Below are positions 3,937 through 31,189 of a stretch of 64,000 nucleotides of DNA, one piece after another. Source of the DNA: an uncultured Candidatus Saccharibacteria bacterium (lineage in GTDB: Bacteria > Patescibacteriota > Minisyncoccia > Phycocordibacterales > WO2-35-19); assembly GCA_964440955.1 (NCBI GenBank), contig CAYTTP010000002.1, forward strand, positions 18,372 to 82,371. Direction: 5' to 3'. A program made the position numbers and the translations under genes. Below the pieces are notes generated by a model that was not told where the DNA came from, did not search any database, and saw only the letters and a list, made by a program, of their open reading frames with translations. Each line of letters starts with the position of its first letter. Position 1 is the first letter of the stretch.

Positions 3937-4015
3937 TTTTTCAATCTTGTGGGTGGATTAAAAATAATTCTAATTTAAAGAAACGTTTTCGAATTACTTC
4001 TGATAAGATGTACTT

Positions 4016-5953: not shown

Positions 5954-5955
5954 AC

Positions 5956-6768
5956 ATGACAACTAAAAACCAAAAACCAAAAAAGAGTTTGGGACAAAAT
6001 TTTTTGAGAGATCCAAAAATCTTAAAAAAAATAGTAGCAATAGCAAATCTAAATAAAGAAGATGTGGTGCTTGAAGTAGGGCCAGGAGAGGGGCTAATGA
6101 CTCAGATGCTTTTGGATAGAGTGGGCAAGGTGATCGCGGTCGAAAAAGACAGCGATATGGTGTCGTTGTTGAGAGAAAAATTTAAAAATGAAATAATTTC
6201 TGGCCGGCTTGAGGTTGTTGAGGCCGACATCCTTAAATTTAAAATTGAAAATTTAAAATTGAAAATTATTGGAAACATTCCTTACTACATCACTGGCGCT
6301 ATCTTGCGCCATACATTTGAAACCGAGAAATTACCAACCTCGATCACCTTCGTCGTTCAAAAAGAGGTAGCGGAGAGAGTGGTAGCAAAAGACGGCAAAG
6401 AAAGCGTTTTGAGTATTTCGGTCAAAGCTTACGGCACACCGCATTTTGGCGGAGTGATCAAGGCTGGAAGCTTTTTCCCCGCACCAAAAATTGATTCTGC
6501 TATTTTACACATCTCCGACATTTCCAGGAAAAATTTTGAACAATGTTCAGAGGAAAACTTTTTCAAAATTTTGAAATTTGGATTTGCACATAAGAGAAAA
6601 ATTCTTTTAAAAAACCTTTCCGAAAGCTTCAAAATAAAAAGTGACGACTTGAGAAAAATATTTGCCGAATTAAAAATAGACGAAAAAGCGAGGGCAGAGG
6701 AAATTTCGGTCGAATCATGGAAAAAACTTGCCTCTAAAATTTTTTTAAATGGTATAATGATTGAGTGA
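5956..6768 (+). CDS. rsmA: 16S rRNA (adenine1518/1519-N6)-dimethyltransferase
   Basis: KSLGQNFL...EVGPGEGLMT SAM-binding motif, IGNIPYYIT. Confidence 0.85.
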   Translation: MTTKNQKPKKSLGQNFLRDPKILKKIVAIANLNKEDVVLEVGPGEGLMTQMLLDRVGKVIAVEKDSDMVSLLREKFKNEIISGRLEVVEADILKFKIENLKLKIIGNIPYYITGAILRHTFETEKLPTSITFVVQKEVAERVVAKDGKESVLSISVKAYGTPHFGGVIKAGSFFPAPKIDSAILHISDISRKNFEQCSEENFFKILKFGFAHKRKILLKNLSESFKIKSDDLRKIFAELKIDEKARAEEISVESWKKLASKIFLNGIMIE

Positions 6769-7613
6769 ATTTTTTACCGAGTAAAAAAATTTTGAGTTTG
6801 CTTGTCATTATTATCGCGTTTGTCGCTTCGATCATGCTCGCTTTTGGTCGAGGCACCAAACAAGTCATAAACGCGACCACTGCCCTAATACCAGGAGAGA
6901 AGATAGGTTTGCCCGAAAATCCAGGTTGGCAGGAAGACATAGAGCTATTGCAGTATAAAAGCAATTCTTCGACCACCGCTTCCACTTTTGAAGAAGAACC
7001 GACCACTTTAACCGACAGTCTCTCCCAAAGCCTCATTTCAAACTACTTGAGTATGAAGCAAAGTGGCACTTTGGATGCCGACAACGCCACCAACCTTATA
7101 GATCAGAGCCTTGAATATATTGCAAATAGTGCACCAGTTTCTCAAATTTCAAACCTTAATCTTAGCTCTAAAAACGACGTAGCAGCCATGAAGCAATACG
7201 GGGAAGACCTTGGTAAAGTACTCAAATCAAATCGGCCAAAAAACCCAAAAAACGAGCTTGAAATATTGACTGCAATCGCCACCAACAAAGACCAAAGCAA
7301 AATAAAGGAATTGGAGGAGGTAAACATGGTATATAGAAATATCTTGATAGATTTGTCTCTGATAAAAGTCCCCAAGCTGTTCGCTACCTCTCACCTAGAT
7401 ATGATAACCGGACTAAACCAAGTGAGTTCAGCCATTTCGGACATGCAAATCGTGTTAAACGACCCTATTAAGGGGGTGGTTGCCCTTGAAACCTACAAAA
7501 ATGGTTCTTATTTGTTTGCCACTCCACTTCAAGCCACTATCGCGTATCTCAAGAAAAACAATGTCGTTTATGAACAAGGTAGTGGTGGTTATTATCTACT
7601 CCACGGCTTATAA
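6765..7613 (+). CDS. Hypothetical bitopic membrane protein; first gene of the T4SS-like cluster
   Basis: Single N-terminal TM helix followed by a Ser/Thr-rich extracellular region; start overlaps the rsmA stop. Confidence 0.35.
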   Translation: MNFLPSKKILSLLVIIIAFVASIMLAFGRGTKQVINATTALIPGEKIGLPENPGWQEDIELLQYKSNSSTTASTFEEEPTTLTDSLSQSLISNYLSMKQSGTLDADNATNLIDQSLEYIANSAPVSQISNLNLSSKNDVAAMKQYGEDLGKVLKSNRPKNPKNELEILTAIATNKDQSKIKELEEVNMVYRNILIDLSLIKVPKLFATSHLDMITGLNQVSSAISDMQIVLNDPIKGVVALETYKNGSYLFATPLQATIAYLKKNNVVYEQGSGGYYLLHGL

Positions 7614-7623
7614 TTAACTCAAA

Positions 7624-8904
7624 ATGAACTGGATTTATTCAAAAATAGGCGCATCTAAAAAAATAGGAGCGTTCTTGATAGTCTTTAGTATCTTTTCTGG
7701 CATGGTCGCGCCAATATTCCCTCAAAAAGCTGAGGCTCAGTGGTTGGTTTTTGACCAAGCAAATTTCATCGAAAACCAGAGAGGAAATTGGATAAATACA
7801 CTAACATCAGCCAACACTTTGTTTGGAGGTCCGGTGAAGGAGGGTGGTATGGATGCGGTAGCCTGGATACTAGCCAACTTGGTCATAGAACGCATTGCGG
7901 CAAGCACTGTCACCTGGATCAATAGCGGCTTCAAAGGAAGTCCAGCCTTCATCACCGACCCAGGCGCATATTTCAAGGACTTGGGCGACAAAATAGCAGG
8001 GGAGGCGATCATGAGTGGCGACTTTAGGTTTTTGTGCGGTAACTTAAATGCCAAAGTGCGGATCGCTCTTGCCCGCGGCTACATCGGCGAGCGAAATTTT
8101 TCCTGCAAACTCTCGACTGTTGAAGGTAACCTCGAAAACTTCATGAATGATTTTAATCGAGGCGGCTGGGATAAGTTTTTCATATTAAGCCAGGACCAAA
8201 CTCAAAACCCACTTGGTATATATATCCAAGCGGAAGGCGACTTGGCTCGACGAATCGCTGACCAAGTAGGACTCAAAAACCAAGAATTAGCTTGGGGTAA
8301 AGGCTTTTTGTCTTTCAAAAAGTGTGCTTCCTGGTCCGGAGCACCGACCGCCACCGATGATCCAAATTTATATGACGAAAATGGCATACCAACAGCAGGT
8401 AGCCCACAGAGGCAATGTAATAGGGAAGAAATAGTAACCCCGGGCGATGTTATTTCAACACAATTAAACGATGTGCTTGGTATTGGCAACGACAAGCTTG
8501 CAGTAGCTGACGAAATAAACGAAATCGTAAGTGCTCTTTTAAATCAGCTTGTAAGCCAAGTTGTTGGCGGTATTGGTAAAGGCTTGCGTGGTCTTTCACA
8601 ACCAAACTCTTCAAACAATAATAGGGCCTTTATTGATCAATTAGCCAACCGAAACCCTGGCGACACCATTGTTGGCTACTTCTGCCTCGACAAACCAACC
8701 GACCCAGGCTACGACCCAACCGGCCAAACCTGCCAAAATCCTGATACACCAGACACATCTATTATCAACCTTCCTCCTCCATATATACCACCAGTAGACA
8801 CTTCCACCTCAACCAACCCAAGCATAAACCCAATAAGCCCACAGGAATACTGCAACCGAAACCCTAACGACGAAAATTGTCGTAATGACAGGTTGAATAT
8901 GTAA
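7624..8904 (+). CDS. Hypothetical secreted protein with a Pro/Thr-rich C-terminus (T4SS-locus associated)
   Basis: Signal peptide/TM at the N-terminus; C-terminal PPPYIPPVDTSTSTNP low-complexity tail. Confidence 0.35.
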   Translation: MNWIYSKIGASKKIGAFLIVFSIFSGMVAPIFPQKAEAQWLVFDQANFIENQRGNWINTLTSANTLFGGPVKEGGMDAVAWILANLVIERIAASTVTWINSGFKGSPAFITDPGAYFKDLGDKIAGEAIMSGDFRFLCGNLNAKVRIALARGYIGERNFSCKLSTVEGNLENFMNDFNRGGWDKFFILSQDQTQNPLGIYIQAEGDLARRIADQVGLKNQELAWGKGFLSFKKCASWSGAPTATDDPNLYDENGIPTAGSPQRQCNREEIVTPGDVISTQLNDVLGIGNDKLAVADEINEIVSALLNQLVSQVVGGIGKGLRGLSQPNSSNNNRAFIDQLANRNPGDTIVGYFCLDKPTDPGYDPTGQTCQNPDTPDTSIINLPPPYIPPVDTSTSTNPSINPISPQEYCNRNPNDENCRNDRLNM

Positions 8905-8923
8905 TTAAAAATAACAAACCGAC

Positions 8924-9775
8924 ATGAAAATACACTTCCAAAAAATAATTTTCCTAGGACTTCTATCCTTCATGGCTCCATCTTTGGTAAACGCCCAAAG
9001 CGCCGACGTATCAAACTGCCTTGGAGCAGTAGTAAACGGTGTTTGTAATGCAAACATATCCGTTAGTGTTTGTGCAAACGGTTCAACATTTGAGCAGCCC
9101 GACGGCACCATAACCTGCCAAGTACCAATAAACGGTCAGTGGGTAGTAGCCAGTTTCAATGAAAAAGTAGGTACTATAAGGACACCGATCGTAACCTCAA
9201 GCCCCGACTGTGCCGGACCAGTGGTAAACGGTGTTTGTCGAACCGAAATCGCAAATGCCCAAAATAACTGCATCGCAGGCACTATACAAACTGACGCAAG
9301 TGGCAACCGTTCCTGTCAAGTTTTGCTAAATGGCCAATACACAACAACAAACATCTGTACTGGTACCGAGACAACAGGCCCATGTCGAGCGGAGCGCATC
9401 AATCTGCAAGCAGCTCTCGAAGCAGCACGCCAAATGAGCCTTGCAACCGGTAGGCAGTGTCGAGCCGAGTTTAGTTCCTTTCCGACAATCGACATAAATA
9501 CCGGTCTATCAAATGGTTTTTATCAAACTCTCTGTGAGGGCGACTTTGGCTTCAACCCAACCGACTATGCAAATGGTATAGGTCCGGTAAGACCAACCAC
9601 TCCGTCTCAAGGTACTAGACCAACCAACATACCCGAGAGCACCCGTCCGGAAAACACCGGAGGTATGACAACGATAAATGTAGGCGCGAGTACCAACAGC
9701 GCTTATATTTCCGGACTCATGGAAATAATAAACCGCTTTCTCGAAAACGCCCGCCGATTGTATGGGACACGATAG
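8924..9775 (+). CDS. Cysteine-rich secreted protein with an internal tandem duplication
   Basis: Signal peptide; repeated module VVNGVC...C...CQV..NGQ appears twice. Confidence 0.4.
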   Translation: MKIHFQKIIFLGLLSFMAPSLVNAQSADVSNCLGAVVNGVCNANISVSVCANGSTFEQPDGTITCQVPINGQWVVASFNEKVGTIRTPIVTSSPDCAGPVVNGVCRTEIANAQNNCIAGTIQTDASGNRSCQVLLNGQYTTTNICTGTETTGPCRAERINLQAALEAARQMSLATGRQCRAEFSSFPTIDINTGLSNGFYQTLCEGDFGFNPTDYANGIGPVRPTTPSQGTRPTNIPESTRPENTGGMTTINVGASTNSAYISGLMEIINRFLENARRLYGTR

Positions 9776-9788
9776 TGCAAAAAAATGA

Positions 9789-12044
9789 ATGAATAAAAAA
9801 TTATCAACATTATTTTTTGTCGCGATCCTGGCACTGACTTTTGTGCCTAATTTTGCTTTTGCTATAACCGAAGCCGAATGTAAAGCCAAAGGCTCAAACT
9901 ATTTCTTCACGCCAGAACTTAGAATTAGCGAGTCGGAAGTAGTGCCAGCCAACTGTACAGAGAGGACTCAAGAAGTAAGAGATAGGGGGAACCAGGTAAT
10001 GAGTGAAATGCAATCAAACGGCAGCAATCTTTTGGGTGTAATGTTTGAGCCATTGTTCAAAGGCATAGGGCAACTACTCATGACTCTTTCATCACTCGTC
10101 CTCCTTACAGTAGGGAAGCTTTTTGATTTGAGTATTACCTACACGATCATTGATATGGCAAAAAACCTAGGGCCAGACGGTATCGGCAAGGCTATCGAAG
10201 GAGCTTGGGCAACCCTAAGAGATTTGGCCAATATATTTTTTATCTTCATACTTATATATGCCGCCTTTAAGGCAATGTTTGACCTAAATCCAACTAGCAT
10301 AGGTGGCACAGTCAAAAATATAATCATAGTCGCCCTGCTTATAAACTTCAGTCTCTTTTTGTCAAAAGTGGTTATTGATGCTTCCAATGTAGTGGCAATT
10401 GGGTTTTATAAATCAATCAGTGTTCAAGAAACATATAATTTAAATTCGGGAACCATTGACGATGATGGAAATATCCTCCCCCGACCAACTGAAGTGACAG
10501 GTATAACCGGTGGTTATATGAACCTGCTTGGGATGAATGGTTGGTTTTCATCAAAAATCCTTGATACCAATGTCAGAGCCTCTACCGCAATGGCGCTTGG
10601 TGTCATGAGTTCGATATTCATGATTGTGACAGCAGTTGTTTTTGGCATCACCGCTTTTATGTTGATCGCTCGCTACATCATTCTTATATTTTTGCTCGTA
10701 CTCTCTCCGCTTGCTGCTATTTCATATATGATCCCCGGACAAAGCTCGTATTTTGATAAGTGGTGGAAAATGCTTCTAAACCAAGCCCTCTTTGCTCCAG
10801 TTTTCTTTGCTATGACCTGGGTCGTATTTAAAGTGGCCGGACATCCAAAATTTTTGGGCTCACTATCAGACAAAATATCAGGAAAAGTTTTTGTTGAAAC
10901 AATAACAAACGGTGCCGATACTGGGGTCGCTGCCATTGTTTTAAACTTTGTTTTGATCACCGGCTTCTCAGTCGCTGCGCTTATAGTATCAAAGAGTATT
11001 GCCTCAAAGACCGAAGGTTTCAACGCCATCACTGCCGGCGCGGCTGGAGCAGTTTTTGGAGGCAGTGCTCTTGCAATGAGAAATACCGTCGGCAGAGCTT
11101 CGTCACTTGTTAGTGACAAATATAGGGATAGGTTGGAAAAATCCGCCATCGGCAGAAGTACACTTTGGCTTGCCAATAAAGGTAAGGGAGCAAGCTTCGA
11201 TACTCGTGGTATTGACCTAGGTAAAGTACCTGGAGTTGGTGGGTATATCAAAAAAGAAGCTGACATCCTAGGCAAGGCAGGTGGTGCTGGTGGCTTTGCT
11301 AAAGCAGTCAAAACAAAAGCAGAAGCTAAGGAAAAATACGCTAAGGAGGTTTATGGTCAAAGTGAAAATGAAAAAGATGAGATTAAGAAAATCAAAAAAG
11401 ATAAAAATTTGACAGACAAGATAAATCTAGACCGCGAGATTGCAGAAACTAAAACAGCAACCGAAGCAAAAGAAAAGGAAGAGAAGAGAAAGAAATATGC
11501 TGATACAATACTTGGAGAATACAATACTAGATTGGCAGAACTAAATAAAGAGAGAGTAGTTAAACAGAGAGAAGTGAGTGCAGAGAAAGATGAAGACAGA
11601 AAGAAAGTATTAACCACAGAGTTAAGTAATATCTTGGCTAGTATCAACCTTGAAAAAGAGGGGAGAAAAGAAAAGGAGAAGGATATGGAAAATAATGATG
11701 CAACATACAAAGACTTGAAAGAAAAGGCTGATGAAGCTAAAGAGGCCGCCAAAAAAGCAAAGGAACAGAGAAATAAAAAGGAATACGATGATAGTGAATA
11801 TGGCGAGAGATTGAAGGATATAAAGGATAGAGCCAAGAAGCGCCAAGGAATGTATGCAGAAAGATTGAGAAAAATGCCATTTGTTGGTTGGACACAAGGT
11901 AGTGAAGCGGCGGCAAGAAAAGTTGAAGCTCTCACAGAAGAGAAGTCGAAAAGTCAAAAAGCGGCTGACCTTTTAACTGAATTTGCAAAAGATGCCACAC
12001 CTACTCCACCCCCACCGACACCTCCAACCACCCCAACAACATAA
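9789..12044 (+). CDS. TrbL/VirB6-like polytopic membrane protein with a long Lys/Glu-rich coiled-coil tail and a PT-rich C-terminus
   Basis: Signal peptide, then about 6-7 TM helices over some 350 aa, then about 270 aa of KEKE-type low complexity ending PTPPPPTPPTTPTT. It sits next to the VirB4-like gene. Confidence 0.5.
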   Translation: MNKKLSTLFFVAILALTFVPNFAFAITEAECKAKGSNYFFTPELRISESEVVPANCTERTQEVRDRGNQVMSEMQSNGSNLLGVMFEPLFKGIGQLLMTLSSLVLLTVGKLFDLSITYTIIDMAKNLGPDGIGKAIEGAWATLRDLANIFFIFILIYAAFKAMFDLNPTSIGGTVKNIIIVALLINFSLFLSKVVIDASNVVAIGFYKSISVQETYNLNSGTIDDDGNILPRPTEVTGITGGYMNLLGMNGWFSSKILDTNVRASTAMALGVMSSIFMIVTAVVFGITAFMLIARYIILIFLLVLSPLAAISYMIPGQSSYFDKWWKMLLNQALFAPVFFAMTWVVFKVAGHPKFLGSLSDKISGKVFVETITNGADTGVAAIVLNFVLITGFSVAALIVSKSIASKTEGFNAITAGAAGAVFGGSALAMRNTVGRASSLVSDKYRDRLEKSAIGRSTLWLANKGKGASFDTRGIDLGKVPGVGGYIKKEADILGKAGGAGGFAKAVKTKAEAKEKYAKEVYGQSENEKDEIKKIKKDKNLTDKINLDREIAETKTATEAKEKEEKRKKYADTILGEYNTRLAELNKERVVKQREVSAEKDEDRKKVLTTELSNILASINLEKEGRKEKEKDMENNDATYKDLKEKADEAKEAAKKAKEQRNKKEYDDSEYGERLKDIKDRAKKRQGMYAERLRKMPFVGWTQGSEAAARKVEALTEEKSKSQKAADLLTEFAKDATPTPPPPTPPTTPTT

Positions 12045-12047
12045 AAA

Positions 12048-12611
12048 ATGGAAACAAAAGAAATTATAAAAGAAAGACTTGATATATTGGGAGACGAACT
12101 AAGAGAATTCATCTTAAATGAAGGTTGGAGAAGTGATGTTAAAAAAATATGTGAGAGGTATGCTCTTGACGAAGAGCAATCCACTGTGTTTGAGAATGAA
12201 GTATTTTTTTCCTTGCTCTGTATAGAAAAAACAAGCGATATTGAAAAGAATCTAAAAGACTATGGTGGCTTTGAGGAACAGTTGGCGGGGTGGGTTTCAG
12301 AAGAAGCGCAAAAATATATATTCAATAATGTTCAAGAGTATATAAGTGAATTTTGGCAAAGTATGAATGAAATAGCCCAGGAGCAAGAACCTGCAAAAAA
12401 AGAAAGGCAAATAAATACGGGAAATGATTTTGAGCAGTTGATCATAAACCAAGCGCGAGCAATGCAGCCTGCCCGAATCGCCTCGAGCGAAGCCGTAGCG
12501 GGCGGGCCTGCCCGAACAGGCGAAGCGCCACAAAATTTACCTACACAGGATAAACCAAGAGTGATACATAATTATATCGGGCAAGATCCGTATAGGGAGG
12601 CAGTCGAATGA
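12048..12611 (+). CDS. Hypothetical acidic cytoplasmic protein
   Basis: No TM segments; the 3' end contains a local GC-rich stretch (12460-12540) carrying a CCTGCCCGAA direct repeat. Confidence 0.35.
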   Translation: METKEIIKERLDILGDELREFILNEGWRSDVKKICERYALDEEQSTVFENEVFFSLLCIEKTSDIEKNLKDYGGFEEQLAGWVSEEAQKYIFNNVQEYISEFWQSMNEIAQEQEPAKKERQINTGNDFEQLIINQARAMQPARIASSEAVAGGPARTGEAPQNLPTQDKPRVIHNYIGQDPYREAVE

Positions 12612-12637
12612 ATCATGAAGTATGAATTATGAATCAA
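12606..12637. repeat. AT-rich GAATTATGAAT-type repeat, left arm flanking the four-helix-bundle gene
   Basis: GAATGAATCATGAAGTATGAATTATGAATCAAG; it contains the stop codon of the upstream gene and the start codon of the 4HB gene. Confidence 0.6.
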
Positions 12638-13014
12638 GTAGTCAAAAAATAAAATCTTTTACAGATCTCAATAGTTGGAAAGAGGGACATAGGTTAGTGG
12701 TGATGATATATAAAATAACAAAAGGTTTTCCAAAGGAAGAGCTTTTTGGGCTAACAAATCAAATAAGAAGAGCTGCTATTTCTATAACATCAAATATTGC
12801 AGAGGGATTCAGTAGAAGTACTTTTAAGGATAAGTCACATTTCTATTCGATAGCATTAGGCTCGCTAACTGAAACCCAAAACCAACTTATTATTGCCAGA
12901 GATGTCGGGTATTTAGATACTAAAAAATTTCATGAAATAGGATTACAAACAGTTGTAGTTAGTAAACTCTGTAATGGCTTGCTAAAATCTAATAGAACTA
13001 AGCATAATTCATGA
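12622..13014 (+). CDS. Four-helix-bundle protein (23S rRNA intervening-sequence protein family)
   Basis: 130-aa sequence with the characteristic EGF.R...EK..FY.IA.GSL.E..TQL.IA pattern; flanked on both sides by AT-rich inverted repeats. Confidence 0.55.
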   Translation: MNYESSSQKIKSFTDLNSWKEGHRLVVMIYKITKGFPKEELFGLTNQIRRAAISITSNIAEGFSRSTFKDKSHFYSIALGSLTETQNQLIIARDVGYLDTKKFHEIGLQTVVVSKLCNGLLKSNRTKHNS

Positions 13015-13036
13015 TTCTTAATTCATAATTCATTTC
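13003..13036. repeat. AT-rich repeat, right arm, inverted relative to the 12606 arm
   Basis: CATAATTCATGATTCTTAATTCATAATTCATTTC; it contains the 4HB stop codon. Confidence 0.6.
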
Positions 13037-13041
13037 TTTTC

Positions 13042-13455
13042 ATGAGATTCCAAGTCCCACAGTTTATAGACGTCGAAGACAAAATATTTGGGCCACTAAC
13101 CCTTAAGCAGTTTATATATTTGGCTGGCGGAGCAAGCGTACTTCTTGTCACCACTACTATGTTTGGACTTTTCTTTGGCTTACTCCTCGCTTCCCCAGTC
13201 GTCCTCCTTGCTATCGCTCTTGCATTTTATAAAATAAACAACCGACCATTCATCCACGCTCTTGAAGCCGCCTTCATTTACCTCACTAAAGACAAACTCT
13301 ATATTTGGAAAAAAACTGAGGAGCAACGAGTCGAAACAAACAACGAACAAAAATATAAAGGATTGTCAGTACCAAACCTATCAAACAGCAAATTGAAAGA
13401 TATGAACTGGCAACTCGACACAAAGAGGGGAGAAGAATCGAAGACTGGTATATAA
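13042..13455 (+). CDS. PrgI/VirB3-like small membrane protein
   Basis: 137 aa with a conserved N-terminal stretch (FQVPQFIDVEDKIFGPLTLKQFIYL) followed by two adjacent TM helices; this is the PrgI-family architecture. Confidence 0.5.
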   Translation: MRFQVPQFIDVEDKIFGPLTLKQFIYLAGGASVLLVTTTMFGLFFGLLLASPVVLLAIALAFYKINNRPFIHALEAAFIYLTKDKLYIWKKTEEQRVETNNEQKYKGLSVPNLSNSKLKDMNWQLDTKRGEESKTGI

Positions 13456-13465
13456 TAAATAGTAA

Positions 13466-14089
13466 ATGGCTAACAACGCTACTCAAGAATTTGTCCCGAT
13501 AGACGATGTGCGCGACGGCGTCGTTATTTTGAAAGACGGTAGTATTCGCTACGTACTTATGGCTTCGAGCATAAACTTTTCCCTAAAGTCAGCTGACGAA
13601 AGGCAGGCCATCCTCCTTCAGTTTCAAGATTTTTTGAACTCTCTGGATTTTTCAGTTCAAATATTGGTCGAGTCTCGAAAACTTGATATACGGCCCTACA
13701 TAGCTGTTTTGGAAGAGCGATACAAAGCCCAAACCAACGATCTTATGAAAGTTCAGATCGAACAATACATCGAATTCGTCCGAAGCTTCACCGAGTCGTC
13801 AAATATAATGACCAAAAATTTCTTTATCATCGTACCTTACGACTCAGCAATAATATCGACCCAGTCCGGATTTCTCGGTAGTTTGGTCAGCAAAAAGGAC
13901 GCCAAAAAACAACAAGACGATAGCTTTGAAGAAAATCGAAACCAACTCGAACAGCGAGTAAGTGTGGTCGAGCAAGGTTTGTCGAGATGTGGAGTAAGAG
14001 TTGCAAGGCTTGGAACCGATGAAGTGGTAGAATTATTTTACAAAGTATTTAACCCTGGCGAATCAGAAAAACCAATCAAAATTAGTTAG
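13466..14089 (+). CDS. Hypothetical protein resembling the extreme N-terminus of VirB4/TrbE ATPases
   Basis: FVPIDDVRDGVVILKDGSIRYVLMASSINF...ERQAILLQFQDFLNSL resembles the VirB4 N-terminal region. A 100-nt spacer separates it from the ATPase ORF. Confidence 0.35.
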   Translation: MANNATQEFVPIDDVRDGVVILKDGSIRYVLMASSINFSLKSADERQAILLQFQDFLNSLDFSVQILVESRKLDIRPYIAVLEERYKAQTNDLMKVQIEQYIEFVRSFTESSNIMTKNFFIIVPYDSAIISTQSGFLGSLVSKKDAKKQQDDSFEENRNQLEQRVSVVEQGLSRCGVRVARLGTDEVVELFYKVFNPGESEKPIKIS

Positions 14090-14101
14090 AAACTAATTTT
14101 A

Positions 14102-14183
14102 GAATCAAGAATTATGAATCACGAATTATGGTACGAAAAGAAAAATGGGTTGTATGATTCATACTTCATAATTCATAATTCAA
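14102..14183. repeat. AT-rich inverted-repeat pair with nothing between the arms (25-nt spacer), lying between the two VirB4-related ORFs
   Basis: GAATCAAGAATTATGAATCACGAATTATGG ... TGATTCATACTTCATAATTCATAATTCAA. Confidence 0.6.
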
Positions 14184-14192
14184 TTTAAAAAT

Positions 14193-15989
14193 ATGTTTGA
14201 TTTTTTCAAGAAAAAAGAAAACAAAAAATTGACCAATGTCTCGGTTTTACCGACCACTATCACCGAGAGTGCCGAGCTCGAATTGCGCGATATTTTGGCG
14301 CCCTCAGCCCTAAAGGTTAACGCCAAAGAACTAAACTTGGGTGAAAAGTTAGTGCGTAGCTTCTTCGTCATTTCATACCCACGCTTTCTTTCTGAGGATT
14401 GGTTTTCACCGATTATCAATATGGATAAAATGTTCGATGTCTCTATTTTTATTCACCCGCTTGAAACAGCCAAAGTTCTTCGCACTTTCCAAAAAAAAGT
14501 AGCCGAAGTTCAAAGCCAAATCCGTACTCGGGAAGAAAAGGGGTTGGTACGCGACCCAGTACTCGACACTGCCTACCAAGACCTTGAGAACTTGCGTGAC
14601 GACCTCCAACAGGCGCAGGAAAAAATGTTTGAGGTTGGCCTTTATGTCTCTGTTTATGCAACCACAAGCGAAGAACTCGATAAGGTAGAGTCCGAAATAA
14701 AGTCAATGATGGAGTCGAAACTCGTCTACATCAAACCGGCCCTGTTTCAACAAGAACAGGGTTTTCGCAGCATCTTACCGATCGCCAAAGACGACCTATC
14801 GGTTCACTCTAAAATAAATTCGTCACCACTTTCAAGCGTTTTCCCATTCATTTCCTTTGACCTTACCTCCGACAAAGGTATCCTCTACGGAATAAACCGA
14901 CACAATTCGTCTTTAGTTCTTTTTGATCGCTTCTCGCTAGAAAATTACAACTCAGTATGTCTCGCTAAATCAGGGTCAGGAAAGTCTTTTGCCACCAAAC
15001 TTGAAATATTGCGTACTCTCATGTTTGACGCAGAAGTAATAGTTATTGATCCAGAAAATGAATATGAATATATGGCGGAAGCGGTCGGTGGCCGATATTT
15101 CAACATCTCCCTCAACTCTGACCACCATATAAACCCATTTGAATTGCCAATACCAGGTGAAGACGAGTCAAGTGCAGCAGTTTTGAGAAGCCAAATAATA
15201 AACTTGGTTGGGTTGTTTCGTATCATGATGGGTGGGCTCACTCGCGAAGAAGACGCTATCATTGATCAAGCAATAACCGAAACCTATGCCTTGAAAGACA
15301 TCACGGCCGACTCCGATTTTAAAAATATTGAACCCCCTCTTTTATCTGACTTTGAGCTCGTGCTTGGTGGTATGGAAGGAGGAGCATCACTTGCTCAACG
15401 TATTTCAAAATATACCAGAGGTACTTGGGCAAACTTTATAAACAGGCCATCAAACATCGATATCAACAAACAATTCATTGTTTTTTCAATCCGAGACATG
15501 GAGGATGAGTTGAAGCCAGTCGCTATGTATATCGTAACCCACTATATATGGAACGCGATCCGTCGCGAACTCAAAAAACGCCTGCTTGTGATTGATGAGG
15601 CTTGGTGGATGATGAAGTCCGAGGATACCGCTTCGTTTTTGCTTTCACTCGCAAAACGCGGCCGAAAATACTATCTTGGACTCGCCACCATCACCCAAGA
15701 CGTTGACGACTTTTTGAAATCGCCTTATGGTACACCAATCATCAGCAACTCCTCGATCCAAATACTTCTAAAGCAGTCGCCAACTACCATCGACCGGCTT
15801 CAAGAAGTCTTCAACCTCACCGATGAGGAAAAATATTTGTTGCTCGAGTCGGGAGTAGGGGAGGGAATATTTTTTGCCGGACTCAAACATGTGGCGATCA
15901 AAATAATCGCTTCTTACACCGAAAGCCAAATTATCACTTCCGATCCTTCCCAAATACTTGCCATCAAGCAAATGAAAAATAAGTTATAA
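14193..15989 (+). CDS. virB4: VirB4/TraC/TrbE-family type IV secretion ATPase
   Basis: Walker A CLAKSGSGKSFATK; Walker B LLVIDEAWWMM; LGLATITQD motif. Confidence 0.8.
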   Translation: MFDFFKKKENKKLTNVSVLPTTITESAELELRDILAPSALKVNAKELNLGEKLVRSFFVISYPRFLSEDWFSPIINMDKMFDVSIFIHPLETAKVLRTFQKKVAEVQSQIRTREEKGLVRDPVLDTAYQDLENLRDDLQQAQEKMFEVGLYVSVYATTSEELDKVESEIKSMMESKLVYIKPALFQQEQGFRSILPIAKDDLSVHSKINSSPLSSVFPFISFDLTSDKGILYGINRHNSSLVLFDRFSLENYNSVCLAKSGSGKSFATKLEILRTLMFDAEVIVIDPENEYEYMAEAVGGRYFNISLNSDHHINPFELPIPGEDESSAAVLRSQIINLVGLFRIMMGGLTREEDAIIDQAITETYALKDITADSDFKNIEPPLLSDFELVLGGMEGGASLAQRISKYTRGTWANFINRPSNIDINKQFIVFSIRDMEDELKPVAMYIVTHYIWNAIRRELKKRLLVIDEAWWMMKSEDTASFLLSLAKRGRKYYLGLATITQDVDDFLKSPYGTPIISNSSIQILLKQSPTTIDRLQEVFNLTDEEKYLLLESGVGEGIFFAGLKHVAIKIIASYTESQIITSDPSQILAIKQMKNKL

Positions 15990-15996
15990 TTGGGTA

Positions 15997-16998
15997 ATGA
16001 AAAGCTTTTTCAAAACAGCATTTCTACTTGTCGCCACCTTTTCATTTTTGTTTTTTTCTAATCGGGTTTTGGCGATTTCGATAAATCTGCCGTACAGCCT
16101 GAGCAATGAGCTTGGTGTCGAAATAATACCCGAATATCCGCGACCAAACGAGCAAGTTTGGGTAAACCTCACTCTTTATACCGACAACCTAAATTCGGCC
16201 AATATCTCTTGGTATATTGACGACAAGCTCGTCGAATATGGCATCGGTCTTACTTCCTACTCATTCAAAATGGGCGAGGCCGGAGTGGGGAAAAAAGTCA
16301 CCATAAAAGTAGTATTGGCAAATGGCGCCTCTTTTACAAAGGAAATTTCGCTCACTCCATCGAGTGTTGATTTGATATGGGAAGCACTTTCATACACCCC
16401 ACCTTTTTATAAAGGTCGCGCACTTCACCCCGCCCAAGGGATAGTAAAAGTAGTCGCCATGCCTGAGTTTTATAAAGACGGATCGCGAGTTAAGCCCGAG
16501 AACTTGATTTATAATTGGTCAAATGACGTCGAGGCTTATCAAAGCCAATCAGGCTACGGCAAAAATGTTTTGTTGATAAACGGCTCTCTTATTGGCGATA
16601 TTGACTCGATAAACTTACTCGTAACCGACCCAGGCAAAGGGCTCGCCGCTCAAAATTCCATCTCTATCAACCCATCCGATTCAAGCATAGTTTTTTACAA
16701 AAACGATCCTTATTATGGATTCTCATTGGACAAAGCTTTGTTTGGAACATACAACCTAAAAGAAGAGGAAGTGGAGCTTTTCGCCGCACCATATAACATG
16801 AGTCCTGAATCTTCGACAAACCTGGAGTATTCCTGGAGCTTGAATGGAACTCAAATAAATAGTTTGAACGGTTCACGTACCGCCCTTTTCAAAAAAACTG
16901 AAGAGGAAGGTAGCTCGGAGCTTTTATTTAGAGCAACCAACAACAACCGCATCCTACAATTTACTGAGAACAGCCTTGTGATAAGATTTAGTAAATAA
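15997..16998 (+). CDS. Hypothetical secreted beta-rich protein (T4SS-locus associated)
   Basis: Cleavable signal peptide ending RVLAIS, then a 300-aa extracytoplasmic region. Confidence 0.4.
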   Translation: MKSFFKTAFLLVATFSFLFFSNRVLAISINLPYSLSNELGVEIIPEYPRPNEQVWVNLTLYTDNLNSANISWYIDDKLVEYGIGLTSYSFKMGEAGVGKKVTIKVVLANGASFTKEISLTPSSVDLIWEALSYTPPFYKGRALHPAQGIVKVVAMPEFYKDGSRVKPENLIYNWSNDVEAYQSQSGYGKNVLLINGSLIGDIDSINLLVTDPGKGLAAQNSISINPSDSSIVFYKNDPYYGFSLDKALFGTYNLKEEEVELFAAPYNMSPESSTNLEYSWSLNGTQINSLNGSRTALFKKTEEEGSSELLFRATNNNRILQFTENSLVIRFSK

Positions 16999-16999
16999 G

Positions 17000-17929
17000 A
17001 TGAAAAATTTAAAGTATATACTAACGATAATATTTTTTGCTACGATCGTAACAATACCAGCATTACCCTTCTCAATAAGCGCTCAAGAGAGTTATAAATC
17101 AAGGGGGGAATATACCTTACTCGCTCCACTACCTAAAGTGACTGATTGTACCGATGAACAGGTAGCAGCAGGAAATGTTGAATGCAAAACTGATATTAAA
17201 AAATATGTAGAGGGGATGTTCCAACTTTTGCTCGGTCTTGCTTCTGTTTTCACTGTTGGTTCAATAGTGTATGGAGGGTTTGAGTACATAACGACCGACA
17301 ACTTCATGGGTAAGTCCGATGGTATAAAAAGGATCCAAAATTCCCTTTGGGGTTTGGTCCTTGTTATTTGTTCTTGGATCGTCCTCTATACCATAAACCC
17401 ACGACTAATCCAGGATCTTGATTTGAATATAGAACCGGCTGTATTGGAAAAGAGGTTCAATAGTGGATCATTGACACCACCATCAACACCAGGGAGACCA
17501 ATGACAGAAGATGAGTTGGTGGCAAGCGAGGAAGTTAAATTAGAGTTGGAAAGCGCTAATATAACCGTCTATAAAGGACCTTGCGCCCAAGGACAAACTA
17601 CCCTTTGTGTAAACTTAAATGGTCTAAACCAAAACCTGATTGATGGCGCAAAAAGCTTAAAATCAAGCTGTAATTGTAATATAACAATAACCGGAGGAAC
17701 TGAAGCGGGTCACAGTACTGGTTCGTCACATAATACTGGAAATGCTTTGGATATGAGTTTTGAATCTAACTTAGATAAATACATTTCAGATAATAAAACC
17801 GGTGCACCAGAGAGGGTGGTGGTAAGAAATGTTTATATAGGTGATAGATACATGGTCAATGTAAATGGAAAAACAATGACATTCCTAAAAGAATTGAACC
17901 CACCACATTGGCATGTAGAAATGAGATAA
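17000..17929 (+). CDS. VirB2/TrbC pilin-like N-terminal module fused to a C-terminal M15/LAS zinc peptidoglycan peptidase domain
   Basis: Signal peptide plus two hydrophobic helices (pilin-like), then SSHNTGNALD (M15 SxHxxGxAxD motif) and HWH (M15 xWH motif). Confidence 0.5.
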   Translation: MKNLKYILTIIFFATIVTIPALPFSISAQESYKSRGEYTLLAPLPKVTDCTDEQVAAGNVECKTDIKKYVEGMFQLLLGLASVFTVGSIVYGGFEYITTDNFMGKSDGIKRIQNSLWGLVLVICSWIVLYTINPRLIQDLDLNIEPAVLEKRFNSGSLTPPSTPGRPMTEDELVASEEVKLELESANITVYKGPCAQGQTTLCVNLNGLNQNLIDGAKSLKSSCNCNITITGGTEAGHSTGSSHNTGNALDMSFESNLDKYISDNKTGAPERVVVRNVYIGDRYMVNVNGKTMTFLKELNPPHWHVEMR

Positions 17930-17932
17930 AAA

Positions 17933-19177
17933 ATGAAAAAGATTCTTATCATAGGTATGGTGGTGATAATCGGCGTAGCGGTATTTTTGATATATTCGCC
18001 ACTTGCGGACAATGGTGGGGGAGGAGAGAGTAGGGTCGGTTTTTCGATAAGAGACTTTTTGCCATTTGGCAAAAGCGATGACGGAGTTCAACTTACCGAC
18101 CAAAACCAAGACCAAAACACTCCCACAAGTACCAGCACTTCAACAAATATTGGGGTTATACCAAGAATAAGAAAGGTTTCCCAAGAGCCTATAGCTGGAG
18201 CAGTCATCTTTGCCCAAGGGACGACCAGTGTTGTACGTTTTGTAGAAAAAGGTACAGGCAATGTGTATGAAGCTCGTTCTGACTCAAATACTATTGAGCG
18301 GTTAACCAACACCACTATCCCTAAAATAGTACGAGCTTTTTGGTTGCCAAATGGTACGGGATTTTTGGCTCAAACTCTCGCTCCTGAGAGCGAAATAATA
18401 GAAACTCGATTTGTCAAAATAGCCCGAGCTCTCAATATAGGAGCACAAGAATCACTAACCCCTTATAACGCGACTATTTCCAATTTGCCGACCGGTATAG
18501 AAGAACTAAGTATAAGACCCGACAGTGCCAAGATATTTTATTACACCATTTCAAATTTGAACTCCGAGTGGCATATTTCAAACCCTGACGGTACAGCCGA
18601 TACTGTTGTTTATAAACATCCACTTACCGAATGGTTGCCAACCTGGCTTGATAACTCAAATATAAGCCTCCAAAGCAAACCAAGTGGTACGGAAATAGGT
18701 TATGTTTATTCATTTAATACTTCAAATGGAATTTTGAAGAAAAACGGCACTTCGGGAGCAGGCCTCCTTTCTACCCCAAAAAATATAGAAATGGAATTGG
18801 CTTCAACCGGTGGCACATCACCAAGGCTTTTTGCCATAGACAATAAAAATTTAACCTCAAAAAGTTTGGATGTGGCGACCTTGGCGGACAAATGTACTTG
18901 GTCTTCTTCCAAAACCCTAGCCGTATACTGTGCTGTCCCAAAAGAGGTTTTTAGAGCCGTCTACCCTGACGATTGGTACAAAGGATTATTAAACTTCAAT
19001 GATTCAATTTACTACATCACAATTGACCCATTATTTGTTGTTAACACTATTAACCTTTCCCAAACAACAAAAGAAATGATCGATGTGGTCGATATAAAAA
19101 TTAGTCCAACTGACGATCACCTTATTTTCAAAAACAAAGCAGATGGCTATTTATGGCTTTTGAGAATTGCCGAGTAA
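17933..19177 (+). CDS. Hypothetical membrane-anchored extracytoplasmic protein; last gene of the T4SS-like cluster
   Basis: Single N-terminal TM helix, Thr/Ser-rich linker, large beta-rich ectodomain. Confidence 0.35.
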   Translation: MKKILIIGMVVIIGVAVFLIYSPLADNGGGGESRVGFSIRDFLPFGKSDDGVQLTDQNQDQNTPTSTSTSTNIGVIPRIRKVSQEPIAGAVIFAQGTTSVVRFVEKGTGNVYEARSDSNTIERLTNTTIPKIVRAFWLPNGTGFLAQTLAPESEIIETRFVKIARALNIGAQESLTPYNATISNLPTGIEELSIRPDSAKIFYYTISNLNSEWHISNPDGTADTVVYKHPLTEWLPTWLDNSNISLQSKPSGTEIGYVYSFNTSNGILKKNGTSGAGLLSTPKNIEMELASTGGTSPRLFAIDNKNLTSKSLDVATLADKCTWSSSKTLAVYCAVPKEVFRAVYPDDWYKGLLNFNDSIYYITIDPLFVVNTINLSQTTKEMIDVVDIKISPTDDHLIFKNKADGYLWLLRIAE

Positions 19178-19870
19178 TTGCTTTTTGATATACATATCCT
19201 GGACCATGCCGGCAATATTGCTCACTATCCAATAAAGTGCGACTACGGCCGATATTTTCCACGAAACAAAAAATATAACTATTGGCATGGTGTATTTCAT
19301 TTGAGTACCAAGCACTTGGGAAAAATCTTTTGAGTCAACTGGTGTTTTTTGTCCTGAAGATGATTGCTGAACATGCATTTGAAAATATGTACTTATAGCG
19401 GCTATAATTGCAAAAATAACGCTTTTTTGAGAAACATCAATTAAACCAAATAAATACATTGAAACCGATGTTGGTATTTTTATAAAAGAATACAAAATAG
19501 CCGGGTCAATGGTAGGCAAACCAGAGCGATAAAAAATATGATAAAGAGAGTAGATGACTGGTATTTGAATAAAAAGAGTAACTAAACCTGAAAAAGGGTT
19601 TATGTTGTTTATTTTATAAAATTCCATTACTTTGACAGCCTGTTCTTGAGTATCGGGATATTTCTTTTTTATTTCGGCCAATTCTCCTTCTTTTTGTTTC
19701 ATTATAAGCTGAGTAAGGGAAGTTTTTTTTGAAAGAGGGTAGAGAATTATTTTTACCAAAACAGTCAGAATAATGACTGCGATACCAACATCAACAAAAG
19801 GAATATTCAAAAGAAGAATAAGAGCGTTATAAAGGGGGATATACACAATTGTCTTTAAAAAAGAAATCAT
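19151..19870 (-). CDS. yidC: YidC/Oxa1-family membrane protein insertase (short form)
   Basis: Polytopic protein with a conserved YidC core; rnpA-yidC synteny. Confidence 0.8.
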   Translation of the reverse strand: MISFLKTIVYIPLYNALILLLNIPFVDVGIAVIILTVLVKIILYPLSKKTSLTQLIMKQKEGELAEIKKKYPDTQEQAVKVMEFYKINNINPFSGLVTLFIQIPVIYSLYHIFYRSGLPTIDPAILYSFIKIPTSVSMYLFGLIDVSQKSVIFAIIAAISTYFQMHVQQSSSGQKTPVDSKDFSQVLGTQMKYTMPIVIFFVSWKISAVVALYWIVSNIAGMVQDMYIKKQLLGNSQKP

Positions 19871-20199
19871 TTTAAGTTTTGTATTTTTGTAATAATAGCA
19901 TGAACTTCCTTTTTAACCTCATCAATACGCTCAGGTATCTTCCTAAAGGAAAAAACAACCATAACTGGATTATTTAAAGTTTCAATTATTCCCGAAACAG
20001 CGCGGTAGCCAGCCCGGCGCATTTTGTTTCTTAATACTGCCTTTTTTGATATTTTTTTTGATATCGAAAAGCAAATTCGAGAGTGTTTTTCGTTTGATTT
20101 AGAAAAACGAGCAAAAAAAATAGGGGTATTTAAAAATTGATTGGAGTCATAAACAGTCTTGAAGGACTTCTTGGGTATCCTATATTTTTTGCTTATCAT
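19867..20199 (-). CDS. rnpA: Ribonuclease P protein component
   Basis: Basic 110-aa protein placed between rpmH and yidC; FSISKKISKKAVLRNKMRR motif. Confidence 0.75.
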   Translation of the reverse strand: MISKKYRIPKKSFKTVYDSNQFLNTPIFFARFSKSNEKHSRICFSISKKISKKAVLRNKMRRAGYRAVSGIIETLNNPVMVVFSFRKIPERIDEVKKEVHAIITKIQNLK

Positions 20200-20206
20200 A
20201 AAAGCT

Positions 20207-20341
20207 TTATACTGAAAGCTTTTTTCGGCCTTTTTGGCGACGACGTTTCAAGACTTTTTTGCCATTTGCTGATTTGCTTCTCTTTAGAAAACCGTGAGTT
20301 TTTGCTCGCTTTTTCTTTTTTGGTTGATAGGTTGTTGACAT
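20207..20341 (-). CDS. rpmH: 50S ribosomal protein L34
   Basis: Hand translation of the minus strand gives [44 protein letters not shown] (44 aa). It is absent from the ORF track because it falls below the 60-aa cut-off. Confidence 0.8.
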
Positions 20342-20451
20342 GTTTTTATTTTACTTGCCGGTTAAATTTTCAACTAGTTATAAACACATTATAAACACAT
20401 TTAGTTACAAATACAAGTTTCCTAAAAAAGTTTTGAATATATAATACCTCC
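20342..20451. promoter_or_regulatory. oriC-flanking region upstream of dnaA
   Basis: Tandem TTATAAACACA x2 (20378-20399) and a divergent rpmH/dnaA promoter region. Confidence 0.4.
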
Positions 20452-21795: not shown

Positions 21796-21997
21796 TAAGT
21801 TGTTGATTGATTGAGGAATAGTAATGGAAAAGTAAATTAAAAAGTTGATAATTTTTAAAAAATAAAAAACTAAAAAATTATTATCAACAAATATCCACAT
21901 GATATTTTTAAAAAAATTCCAAAAAACGTTCAGATATAAGCAGATAAAGTAGAATTCCCCAAATCCACAGATTATATGAACTAAAAAAATAAATTAA
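21796..21997. promoter_or_regulatory. Candidate oriC: DnaA-box cluster plus an AT-rich unwinding element between dnaA and dnaN
   Basis: TTATCAACA (21881), TATCCACA (21892), AAATCCACA (21961), TTGATAAG/TTGATAAT reverse boxes (21792, 21844), A/T-only run at 21851-21880. Confidence 0.6.
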
Positions 21998-27513: not shown

Positions 27514-27541
27514 AATTCTTGATTCTCAATTCATTATTCAG
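27478..27541. repeat. AT-rich inverted-repeat pair between yebC and ruvC
   Basis: TGAATTATGAATTATGAATTTTGAATTATG / CATAATTCTTGATTCTCAATTCATTATTCA; it supplies the first codons of ruvC. Confidence 0.6.
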
Positions 27542-31074: not shown

Positions 31075-31115
31075 AAAAATATTATAGCATGACCTATTTT
31101 CTCCTATGCAGACCT

Positions 31116-31152
31116 TACCCCCCAGCCCCTCTCCTAGAATTAGGAGAGGGGA
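31116..31152. repeat. GC-palindrome family copy A (ACCCCCCAGCCCCTCTCCTAGAATTAGGAGAGGGGAG)
   Basis: Seen directly; shares a leader with copy D and a 23-nt core with copy B. Confidence 0.6.
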
Positions 31153-31160
31153 GTCAGACA

Positions 31161-31189
31161 TTGCTTTTTTATATAAATAATGTATAATG
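31161..31189 (+). promoter_or_regulatory. Promoter TTGCTT-17-TATAAT upstream of the GC-rich lipoprotein gene
   Basis: Spacing counted base by base; followed by the GGAGG ribosome-binding site at 31202 and the ATG at 31216. Confidence 0.45.

Follow-up and report, generated by a model that had tools for sequence, protein, structure and literature searches.

A probable Patescibacteria-clade type IV secretion system beside dnaA, dissected gene by gene

What kind of machine is encoded by a cluster of type IV secretion system (T4SS)-like genes that lies among housekeeping genes, next to dnaA, in the small chromosome of an uncultured member of the Patescibacteria? The cluster occupies positions 6765-19177 of a 64,000-nucleotide stretch of contig CAYTTP010000002.1 (assembly GCA_964440955.1), referred to below as the window. 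A first-pass annotation had described it as a reduced T4SS of monoderm or candidate phyla radiation style, chromosomal rather than conjugative and probably central to the lifestyle of its bearer, and both our tests and the published view agree with this description. Our analysis indicates that the cluster is almost certainly a chromosomally fixed T4SS of the Patescibacteria clade, a system known already, and that its best explanation is very probably such a system, derived from MPF_FATA conjugation machinery and present here in the Paceibacteria/Zambryskibacteria form beside the replication origin. The system has been known since a transposon sequencing (Tn-seq) study of 2023 and a survey and a review of 2025, so that the window adds an instance and not a discovery; the exact cluster proteins are public in NCBI and in Logan assemblies, as is the genome itself. 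Added here are a per-gene dissection of a Zambryskibacteria-type locus, structural support for its VirB6-like protein, the apparent fusion of a VirB2-like pilin to a LAS-fold domain, and the finding of a slowly evolving core beside fast exported parts. The Patescibacteria T4SS is the best candidate machine for host interaction in the host-dependent Patescibacteria, which account for much of the diversity of bacteria.

An open reading frame (ORF) scan of the cluster yielded 12 co-directional, tightly packed ORFs on the + strand, spaced 1-27 nt apart but for one interval of 103 nt (14090-14192). At its two ends the string runs into its neighbours: ORF 1 shares 4 nt with the stop of ksgA, and ORF 12 shares 27 nt with yidC, which is convergent. 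The same 12 genes appear in independent public gene calls made on identical contigs from three sequencing runs. The earlier count of eleven had omitted or partly merged a 187-residue soluble protein, a 23S_rRNA_IVP ORF and a TrsD-like ORF; the cluster it outlined holds up as a packed, co-directional unit, less the ORF at 12622-13014, which is the 23S_rRNA_IVP gene and no part of the T4SS. Proteins that have no family name of their own are designated g1, g2 and so on below.

The core of the system is a VirB4-family ATPase of the MPF_FATA/CD1110 type, encoded at 14193..15989 (+) and corresponding to the C-terminal two-thirds of such a protein. It scores 378.5 bits (E 6.5e-113) on the NCBIfam CD1110-family model NF045971, above the curated cutoff of 325, and 5.3e-30 on the Pfam family PF19044 (P-loop_TraG), and sequence and alignment place the Walker A motif KSGSGKS at residues 259-265 and Walker B, LLVIDE, around D468-E469. 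Other models score lower (Mycoplasma ICE VirB4 272.8 bits, TraC-F 188.6, VirB4_CagE 129); since the best matches are MPF_FATA-type models, the closest affinity of the protein is to this monoderm type. It aligns with residues 225-772 of pCF10 PrgJ at 26% identity over 558 residues (E 2e-44), and is 77-91% identical to the VirB4 proteins of 80 Patescibacteria metagenome-assembled genomes (MAGs), an identity that serves as a proxy for a tree in our tentative placement of the protein in the Patescibacteria clade. The N-terminal, membrane-proximal domain absent from this ORF would be supplied by a separate TrsD-like ORF at 13466..14089 (+), to judge from its alignments: it covers positions 16-200 of the 201 of NF041427 (TrsD/TraD) at 1.6e-7 and 31.4 bits, below the cutoff of 200, carries a precomputed match to PF26593 (TraC-like), and also aligns to N-terminal positions of VirB4 models (CD1110 2-119; Mbov_0397 101-233). 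As 77 of 80 related loci likewise have two distinct ORFs, and as TrsD is a recognised stand-alone family, we rejected a frameshift or a pseudogene as the origin of the split. The VirB4/TraC ATPase of the first-pass annotation, with both Walker motifs, was thus rightly identified, only as one part of a divided protein. Just upstream of these two genes, at 13042..13455 (+), lies a PrgI/VirB3-like protein with two transmembrane helices at residues 25-61, which exceeds the cutoff of PF12666 (35.2 bits against 27; 1.9e-8), as had been expected of it, and which was found in 76 of 80 loci at a median identity of 49-68%.

The 751-residue protein g4 (9789..12044, +) was examined with an AlphaFold2 (AF2) model and Foldseek, and appears to be an extended VirB6-like polytopic membrane protein. 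It consists of a signal peptide, a small ectodomain with a Cys pair, a transmembrane core at about residues 80-420, a K/E-rich coiled coil of about 300-330 residues and a PT-rich tail; hydropathy indicates some 7-8 hydrophobic helices after the signal peptide, in keeping with the roughly 750-residue polytopic TrbL/VirB6-like protein annotated earlier. The AF2 model, built with 69 homologues, has a pLDDT of 77 overall and of 85-94 in the transmembrane core. Foldseek placed five TrwI/VirB6 stalk chains of the R388 system at the head of its PDB matches (E 2.9e-3 to 0.26, probability 0.75-1.0), the best with E 2.9e-3, probability 1.0 and a TM-score of 0.46 on the target; the TrwI identity of the matched chains, among them those of PDB 7o3v and 8rt9, was checked. 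An hhalign comparison gave a local match of 56 columns between g4 297-352 and TrwI 171-226 (E 0.013). We accept, with moderate confidence, a VirB6-like fold for g4 as modelled, and do not accept membership of the sequence family. By analogy, the coiled coil and PT tail would place g4 among the 'extended VirB6' proteins of a 2025 FEMS review (PMC12857230). The gene was found in 61 of 80 loci. A few g4 homologues bear a precomputed PF19590 tag; a local Pfam copy did not reproduce it, and we left it out of account.

The pilin candidate, g11 (17000..17929, +), appears to combine a VirB2-like T4SS pilin, a linker and a domain of the Hedgehog/DD-peptidase (LAS) fold. The pilin part comprises a signal peptide, a YxxLAPLP motif and a helical hairpin at residues 66-132 that is also present in an AF2 model; the LAS-fold domain spans residues 170-309. 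A precomputed PF18895 match is present in most of 99 g11 homologues, some of which are named 'pilin' by NCBI. We conclude that g11 is probably a VirB2-like pilin carrying a putative LAS-type peptidase-fold domain; the pilin-like protein noted earlier does have a further domain at its C-terminus. Term searches of the main text of Quinonero-Coronel et al. 2025 (PMC12102498) and of other literature brought up no fusion of this kind.

This set of parts matches the published description of the Patescibacteria-clade T4SS, namely VirB4, TrsD, PrgI/VirB3, VirB6 and a pilin, with no relaxase, at the side of dnaA. Quinonero-Coronel et al. reported a monophyletic Patescibacteria VirB4 clade allied to MPF_FATA, with TrsD as the most abundant associated component and with PrgI/VirB3, VirB6 and VirB2-like pilins near virB4; the neighbourhood of the T4SS in Paceibacteria is rich in dnaA, dnaN, rnpA, ksgA and rpmH. 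Their systems share VirB4, TrsD, PrgI/VirB3, VirB6, a VirB2-like pilin, the lack of a relaxase and of a nearby T4CP, and the neighbourhood with our cluster, and we found no essential difference between the two.

To describe conservation we used relatives from a scan of one genome per species, which gave at least 594 loci; the best 80 of these (L001-L080) were compared. All 80 belong to Patescibacteria MAGs, labelled Zambryskibacteria, Paceibacterota, Parcubacteria, Taylorbacteria and the like. All contigs of sufficient length repeat the order uvrD-ksgA-[g1, g2, g4, g5, PrgI, TrsD, VirB4, g10, pilin, g12]-yidC-rnpA-dnaA-dnaN. Gene order is kept in about 60-80 Paceibacteria genomes, over 60 of them at species level, in a fixed position beside dnaA; the synteny comparison suggested by the first-pass annotation thus spoke in favour of its reading. 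Median identities to the window proteins, given for the close clade and for the remaining loci, respectively, were 89% and 79% for VirB4, 75% and 62% for TrsD, 68% and 49% for PrgI, 81% and 61% for DnaA (20452-21795), 66% and 54% for UvrD, and 59% and 46% for DnaN, against 31-49% and 25-33% for g1, g2, g4, g5, g10, g11 and g12. VirB4 is therefore the slowest-evolving gene of the neighbourhood, above even DnaA; the loci were picked as best VirB4 matches, which inflates its identity somewhat, yet the gap remains large. The higher identity of VirB4 than of DnaA implies that the motor is under stronger constraint than the replication initiator. The exported, surface-exposed parts diverge fast and swap C-terminal domains, and the core is slow.

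Parts typical of conjugation were sought in the window and in its flanks, some 7-10 kb on each side. That search brought up no relaxase, no coupling protein of the VirD4/TcpA type and no VirB11, VirB7, VirB9 or VirB10, as the first-pass annotation had stated for VirD4, relaxase, VirB11 and outer-membrane components, and the flanks beyond the window ends revealed no VirD4 or relaxase, which it had named as the mark of an ordinary integrated conjugative element. Likewise, no integrase, relaxase or type IV coupling protein (T4CP) was found within the approximately 80 kb spanned by window and flanks. The gene at 62171-64000 encodes a bona fide FtsK with 4TM, alpha and gamma domains, and not a T4CP. 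The GC contents of the individual cluster genes (0.38-0.47) bracket the window mean of 0.406; with a composition equal to that of the genome, the cluster carries no sign of recent transfer, and recent horizontal acquisition was rejected on the grounds of composition and fixed synteny.

Comparison with better-known systems helps to place the cluster. The T4SS of Southlakia epibionticum ML1 (SEML1_0006-0019), the only member with functional data, is likewise of monoderm type; its cluster includes pilin genes, and neither a coupling protein nor a relaxase can be recognised in it (PMC10633639). Its low locus-tag numbers hint that it may lie near the start of the chromosome record. Southlakia belongs to the class Saccharimonadia, and its cluster has an array of six divergent pilins where ours has one putative pilin-peptidase fusion, and separate peptidase and lysozyme genes downstream of virB4 (PMC12102498). 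The MPF_FATA systems pCF10 Prg/Pcf and pGO1/pSK41 Trs share with the cluster the PrgI family, the TrsD-type division of VirB4 (TrsD and TrsE) and the lack of an outer-membrane core; what sets these Firmicutes systems apart from the cluster is their T4CP (PcfC), relaxase, VirB8-like PrgL and surface adhesins, and their lack of VirB2-like pilins. Of the pCF10 proteins other than VirB4, none was detected by our family profiles. R388 Trw (MPF_T) has a VirB2-type pilin, provides in TrwI/VirB6 the best structural match to g4, and has virB5 in front of virB6, just as the cluster encodes the secreted protein g2 directly before g4; in contrast to Trw, the cluster has no identified VirB7, 8, 9, 10 or 11, VirD4 or relaxase, g2 is unlike TrwJ, and g4 bears an extra C-terminal coiled coil of about 330 residues. 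The T4SS of the Mycoplasma integrative and conjugative element (ICE) provides the second-best VirB4 model (Mbov_0397; cutoff 590) and the best match to the g11 pilin domain (Mbov_0395; cutoff 40), and our proteins score below both cutoffs; it too is a minimal wall-less/monoderm system with a pilin-like protein, but it is part of a mobile ICE.

According to cryo-EM work on R388, VirB4 and VirB6 extract VirB2 and polymerise the pilus, and recruitment of substrates needs VirD4 (and VirB11). With VirB2, VirB3, VirB4, VirB6 and a putative hydrolase kept, and VirD4, relaxase and VirB11 absent, the cluster is best read as a host-interface conduit for episymbiotic growth and not as a conjugation apparatus. 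In such a conduit TrsD and VirB4 would dock on a platform of PrgI/VirB3 and the VirB6-like protein in the cytoplasmic membrane; VirB4 would pull pilin from the membrane and power the building of a pilus of VirB2 type or of a short tube; the putative zinc peptidase tethered to the pilin could open peptidoglycan, its own or that of the host; and the fast-evolving surface proteins g1, g2, g3, g10 and g12 may form the wall-spanning and host-contacting part. That the role of the cluster is the assembly of a pilus or tube seems to us probable, if far from assured. In S. epibionticum, Wang et al. 2023 (PMC10633639) found by Tn-seq that the T4SS genes, pilins included, are essential for epibiotic growth, and the FEMS review regards these systems as the first essential T4SS and possibly pilus-forming monoderm T4SS (PMC12857230). 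A recent preprint (bioRxiv 10.64898/2026.06.21.733656) describes tubes, possibly T4SS pili, at the interface of parasite and host together with uptake of host RNA, and leaves the mechanism open.

What passes through such a conduit, and in which direction, is less certain. Uptake of host macromolecules may be the main role, but we propose it tentatively and at less than even chances, as sequence does not decide direction and substrate; import has a slight edge over export owing to the lack of parts for recruiting cytoplasmic cargo and of effector-like genes. A more specific version, a 'feeding tube' powered by VirB4 only, in which a peptidase-bearing VirB2 pilus would cut host peptidoglycan and draw host RNA or nucleotides in, is speculative and on balance unlikely, and so is its corollary that the variable surface proteins g2 and g3 set host range; if true, the system would be a monoderm T4SS that bears a pilus, works in the direction of import and carries an enzyme on its pilin. 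The opposite direction, in which proteins or toxins would be exported into or onto the host as in the effector T4SSs of Gram-negative bacteria or Streptococcus suis 89K, is doubtful, though it comes close behind host uptake in our estimate. Wang et al. proposed that the Southlakia system may export proteins rather than DNA, effector systems lacking a T4CP are known in Ptl and Brucella VirB (PMC12102498, PMC12857230), and the variable Cys-rich proteins encoded between g2 and g4 might serve as cargo or decide host range. Against this, the cluster encodes no candidate effector in which a toxin or enzyme domain can be recognised, its secreted proteins have Sec signal peptides and so need no T4SS to cross the membrane, and window and flanks encode no coupling protein that could recruit cytoplasmic substrates. 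An organelle for adhesion only, a pilus or fibre that attaches the cell to its host and transports nothing, would suit the retained parts, which make up a pilus-biogenesis module, as well as the fast evolution of the surface proteins and the discoidin and Ig-like adhesin domains in relatives of g2. We nevertheless consider it quite improbable, since type IV pili already provide adhesion in Saccharibacteria (PMC12102498, PMC12857230) and, as an indirect argument, one would hardly expect a redundant adhesin to have a VirB4 more conserved than DnaA or to be essential, as the system is in Southlakia.

Two further explanations bring the cluster back to DNA. The first-pass annotation had associated it with ComEC and PilB as a possible DNA-uptake machine, in which the T4SS would deliver environmental or host DNA to ComEC in concert with a type IV pilus. 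Both genes are indeed in the window (ComEC at 76-897, PilB at 29398-31161), T4SS-related DNA importers exist (H. pylori ComB and archaeal Ced), VirB4 has a weak match to the CedB model (3.8e-9), and T4SS loci of the class ABY1 co-localise with comF, recG and radA (PMC12102498). This association was not supported on closer inspection: ComEC lies about 6 kb from the cluster, with infC, rplT, hup, an M23 peptidase, pcrA and ksgA in between, and PilB 10 kb from it amid other housekeeping genes; the CedB score of 35.7 bits is far under the cutoff of 700, and there are no ComB-type VirB7-10 parts. Moreover, deletion of comEC in Southlakia ends competence and leaves growth intact, whereas the T4SS is essential (PMC12102498, PMC12857230). 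We regard DNA uptake as very unlikely. Least credible of all is an ordinary ICE or conjugation apparatus whose relaxase and coupling protein are encoded elsewhere, even though the best VirB4 matches are conjugation families (CD1110, Mycoplasma ICE VirB4, TraC), T4CP genes of Patescibacteria mostly lie at a distance from virB4, and many of their genomes encode VirD4 homologues (PMC12102498). The same chromosomal site and flanks in more than 60 species-level genomes, a composition equal to that of the genome, the empty search of some 80 kb for integrase, relaxase and T4CP, and a VirB4 conserved above DnaA, which is atypical of mobile elements, all argue against it, as does the survey, in which relaxases were present in only 103 Patescibacteria genomes and rarely near virB4 (PMC12102498).

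Several points weigh against the reading of the cluster as a pilus- or tube-forming T4SS at the host interface. Seven of the 12 ORFs, those for g1, g2, g3, g5, g10 and g12 and the inserted IVP gene, are without a supported function, and sequence profiles identified no VirB8-like protein (PrgL/TraM, NTF2 fold), for which g1 and g12 are bitopic candidates. Taken alone, g11 stays under the pilin cutoffs of both Pfam (PF18895, 21.0 bits against 26.6) and NCBIfam, where the Mbov_0395 pilin-like family is the best match of its pilin domain (6e-6, 25.9 bits against 40); its globular C-terminal domain of 140 residues may block polymerisation, and g11 could be a mere membrane anchor for the peptidase. 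The VirB6 assignment of g4 rests on predicted structure, with TM-scores that are modest (0.44-0.49; on the target 0.39-0.49 for the top five matches), and g4 has no significant sequence-profile match: neither Pfam nor the NCBIfam TrbL/VirB6 models match at E<=1, and a g4 family profile returned coiled-coil noise only from all PDB chain sequences and no match to pCF10 PrgH. For this protein, the profile matches that the first-pass annotation had asked of its T4SS components did not materialise, whereas the ATPase and the PrgI-like protein have theirs. Structure prediction, which it had also proposed, linked g4 to TrwI/VirB6 and recovered the hairpin of g11; we consider that the structural match outweighs the missing profile match and that the earlier reading of the polytopic protein stands. 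Finally, the search for relaxase and T4CP was confined to the window and its flanks within a larger genome.

The remaining cluster proteins are mostly exported. Hydropathy confirmed the five signal-peptide or membrane-anchored proteins noted earlier, and translations located the two Pro/Thr-rich tails on the 426-residue and 751-residue proteins. At the start of the cluster, g1 (6765..7613, +) is by hydropathy a bitopic membrane protein of 282 residues with a transmembrane helix at 9-27 and an extracytoplasmic domain; it has no Pfam, NCBIfam or PDB-sequence match, and was found at the same position in 36 of 80 loci at 25-40% identity. The 426-residue g2 (7624..8904, +), secreted by virtue of a signal peptide, has a conserved Cys-containing core and a P/T/S-rich tail, and occurs in 55 of 80 loci directly upstream of the VirB6-like gene. 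Among the 44 members of its family, DUF4141 was detected in 5 (best 1.9e-7), F5/8 type C (discoidin) in 6, Bact_surface_Ig-like in 2 and an InlB B-repeat in 1, the last three kinds of domain being C-terminal, and g2 is a candidate surface or adhesin component. The N-terminus of g2 itself has sub-threshold matches to DUF4141 (0.012) and TrbJ (0.048), which rest on a short motif after the signal peptide, AQW-VFD-AN, kept only in close relatives; a comparison with R388 TrwJ/VirB5 by hhalign was negative (E 0.1, 16 columns), and an assignment of g2 as VirB5/TrbJ was rejected for now.

Between g2 and g4 lies the gene for g3 (8924..9775, +), a secreted Cys-rich protein of 283 residues with 12 Cys, whose internal duplication, noted earlier, was supported by a shuffle test (local score 84 against 29 +/- 5.6, maximum 50, in 300 shuffles). 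A tblastn search with g3 matched none of the 80 related loci. Other secreted proteins rich in Cys (14 Cys), which this search does not match, fill the slot in L004 (4082-5650), L006 (3648-5531) and L067 (4489-6048); in L005 and L010 the slot is empty. Thus g3 is the lineage-specific occupant of a variable slot, which seems to behave as a hypervariable cargo or host-range position. The acidic protein g5 (12048..12611, +; 187 residues, 28 of them Glu) is soluble, with no transmembrane helix and no Pfam or NCBIfam family match, and is possibly an adaptor. It was detected by tblastn in 20 of 80 loci, and its sole invariant feature is a DPYRE(P) motif (at about 12585-12599) that lies three to four residues from the C-terminus in all 21 family members; identity elsewhere in the protein is only about 25%, and DPYRE has zero further occurrences in the six-frame translation of the window. 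The motif may be a docking peptide.

Downstream of virB4, g10 (15997..16998, +) is a 333-residue protein with a signal peptide, kept in position in 77 of 80 loci and probably built of Ig-like/beta-sandwich repeats, as weak matches to PKD_3 (0.0023), phage T4 Hoc (0.012) and IgNAR (0.028) suggest. The last protein, g12 (17933..19177, +; 414 residues), is anchored by an N-terminal helix at 4-22 according to hydropathy and was found in 64 of 80 loci; a weak TolB match (0.02) and matches of a few family members to DPPIV_N, PD40 and DUF5050 hint that its ectodomain is possibly a beta-propeller. When family profiles of g1, g2, g4, g10, g11 and g12 were compared with every chain sequence in the PDB, what came back was either noise from coiled coils or low complexity or had E > 0.01. 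Nine cluster-family profiles run with hmmsearch against pCF10 Prg/Pcf, R388 Trw and two Tn916 proteins found nothing above 8 bits, a test too insensitive to be telling as the PrgI profile missed even pCF10 PrgI.

Inserted between g5 and the PrgI gene is an element at 12608..13033 (+) that is not part of the T4SS. Its ORF (12622-13014) matches PF05635 (23S_rRNA_IVP, a four-helix bundle) at 1.6e-36, is an outlier in composition, with a GC content at third codon positions of 0.21 against about 0.42 in adjacent genes, and lies between inverted arms of (ATGAATY)n heptamers (12608-12636 and 13003-13033) that are 83-94% complementary. A repeat scan located an ORF-less copy of the hairpin in the TrsD/VirB4 spacer (14102..14182, no strand assigned) and further copies at three more gene boundaries of the window (27480-27534, 39040-39118 and 51170-51205); the scan gave 32 matches against 4.5 expected, a number attained in 0 of 100 shuffles. 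The IVP ORF is present in only 16 of 80 loci, at differing intergenic positions of the same operon. Its arms differ in sequence among genomes yet stay complementary, that is, they covary, in loci that include L003, L005, L006, L016, L018, L021, L032, L055 and L061, and their mean duplex energy is -28.1 kcal/mol against -14.1 +/- 7.3 in 239 control genes. The TrsD/VirB4 gap contains hairpins of unrelated sequence in close relatives and the IVP ORF in L021 and L032, and measures 1-5 nt in more distant relatives. Intervening sequences of 23S rRNA have the form of a stem with an ORF in the loop. By analogy, the element would be this architecture transplanted into an mRNA operon, and it looks like a mobile, intervening-sequence-like hairpin element that sometimes carries an ORF. 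We found no description of it in the literature searched and no Rfam family, and neither such insertions nor the variable Cys-rich slot and the DPYRE-tailed soluble protein turned up in term searches of this literature, which for PMC12102498 comprised the main text. The element may be the less-charted feature of the region, though outside the T4SS finding.

As a whole, the window is a run of housekeeping genes from a small chromosome of the Patescibacteria. The cluster is bounded by pcrA/ksgA on one side and by yidC-rnpA-rpmH-dnaA-dnaN on the other. On its 5' side are genes for ComEC, an M23/LysM peptidase, PcrA/UvrD and KsgA, and on its 3' side those for YidC, RnpA, RpmH, DnaA and DnaN, followed farther on by a class A penicillin-binding protein, a class I (Trp/Tyr-type) tRNA synthetase, RuvB, PilB, PolA, Fpg, a Mur ligase, IleRS, MetRS, RecA and FtsK. 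Consensus scans of 3800-20500 for promoters and terminators gave counts not above those of shuffles (40 against 35.2 and 21 against 15.8), and no operon boundaries can therefore be claimed. Rfam at gathering thresholds identified six tRNAs only in the window, none of them inside the cluster.

The DnaA boxes counted over the whole window, 20 where 16.7 are expected, are not significantly in excess of chance. A near-consensus pair of boxes, TTATCAACA and ATATCCACA, is present at 21881-21899 in the AT-rich spacer between dnaA and dnaN. If oriC lies in this spacer or upstream of dnaA, the 12.5-kb T4SS operon would be transcribed towards the origin, head-on to the leftward fork. A separate observation concerns the isoleucyl-tRNA synthetase (47738-51193, 1151 residues), in which a His_Phos_1 domain is inserted in the middle of the catalytic domain, at about residues 518-601. 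An identical public contig has the same arrangement in its precomputed Pfam domains (tRNA-synt_1, His_Phos_1, tRNA-synt_1), and a separate, stand-alone His_Phos_1 gene is located at 41474-42103.

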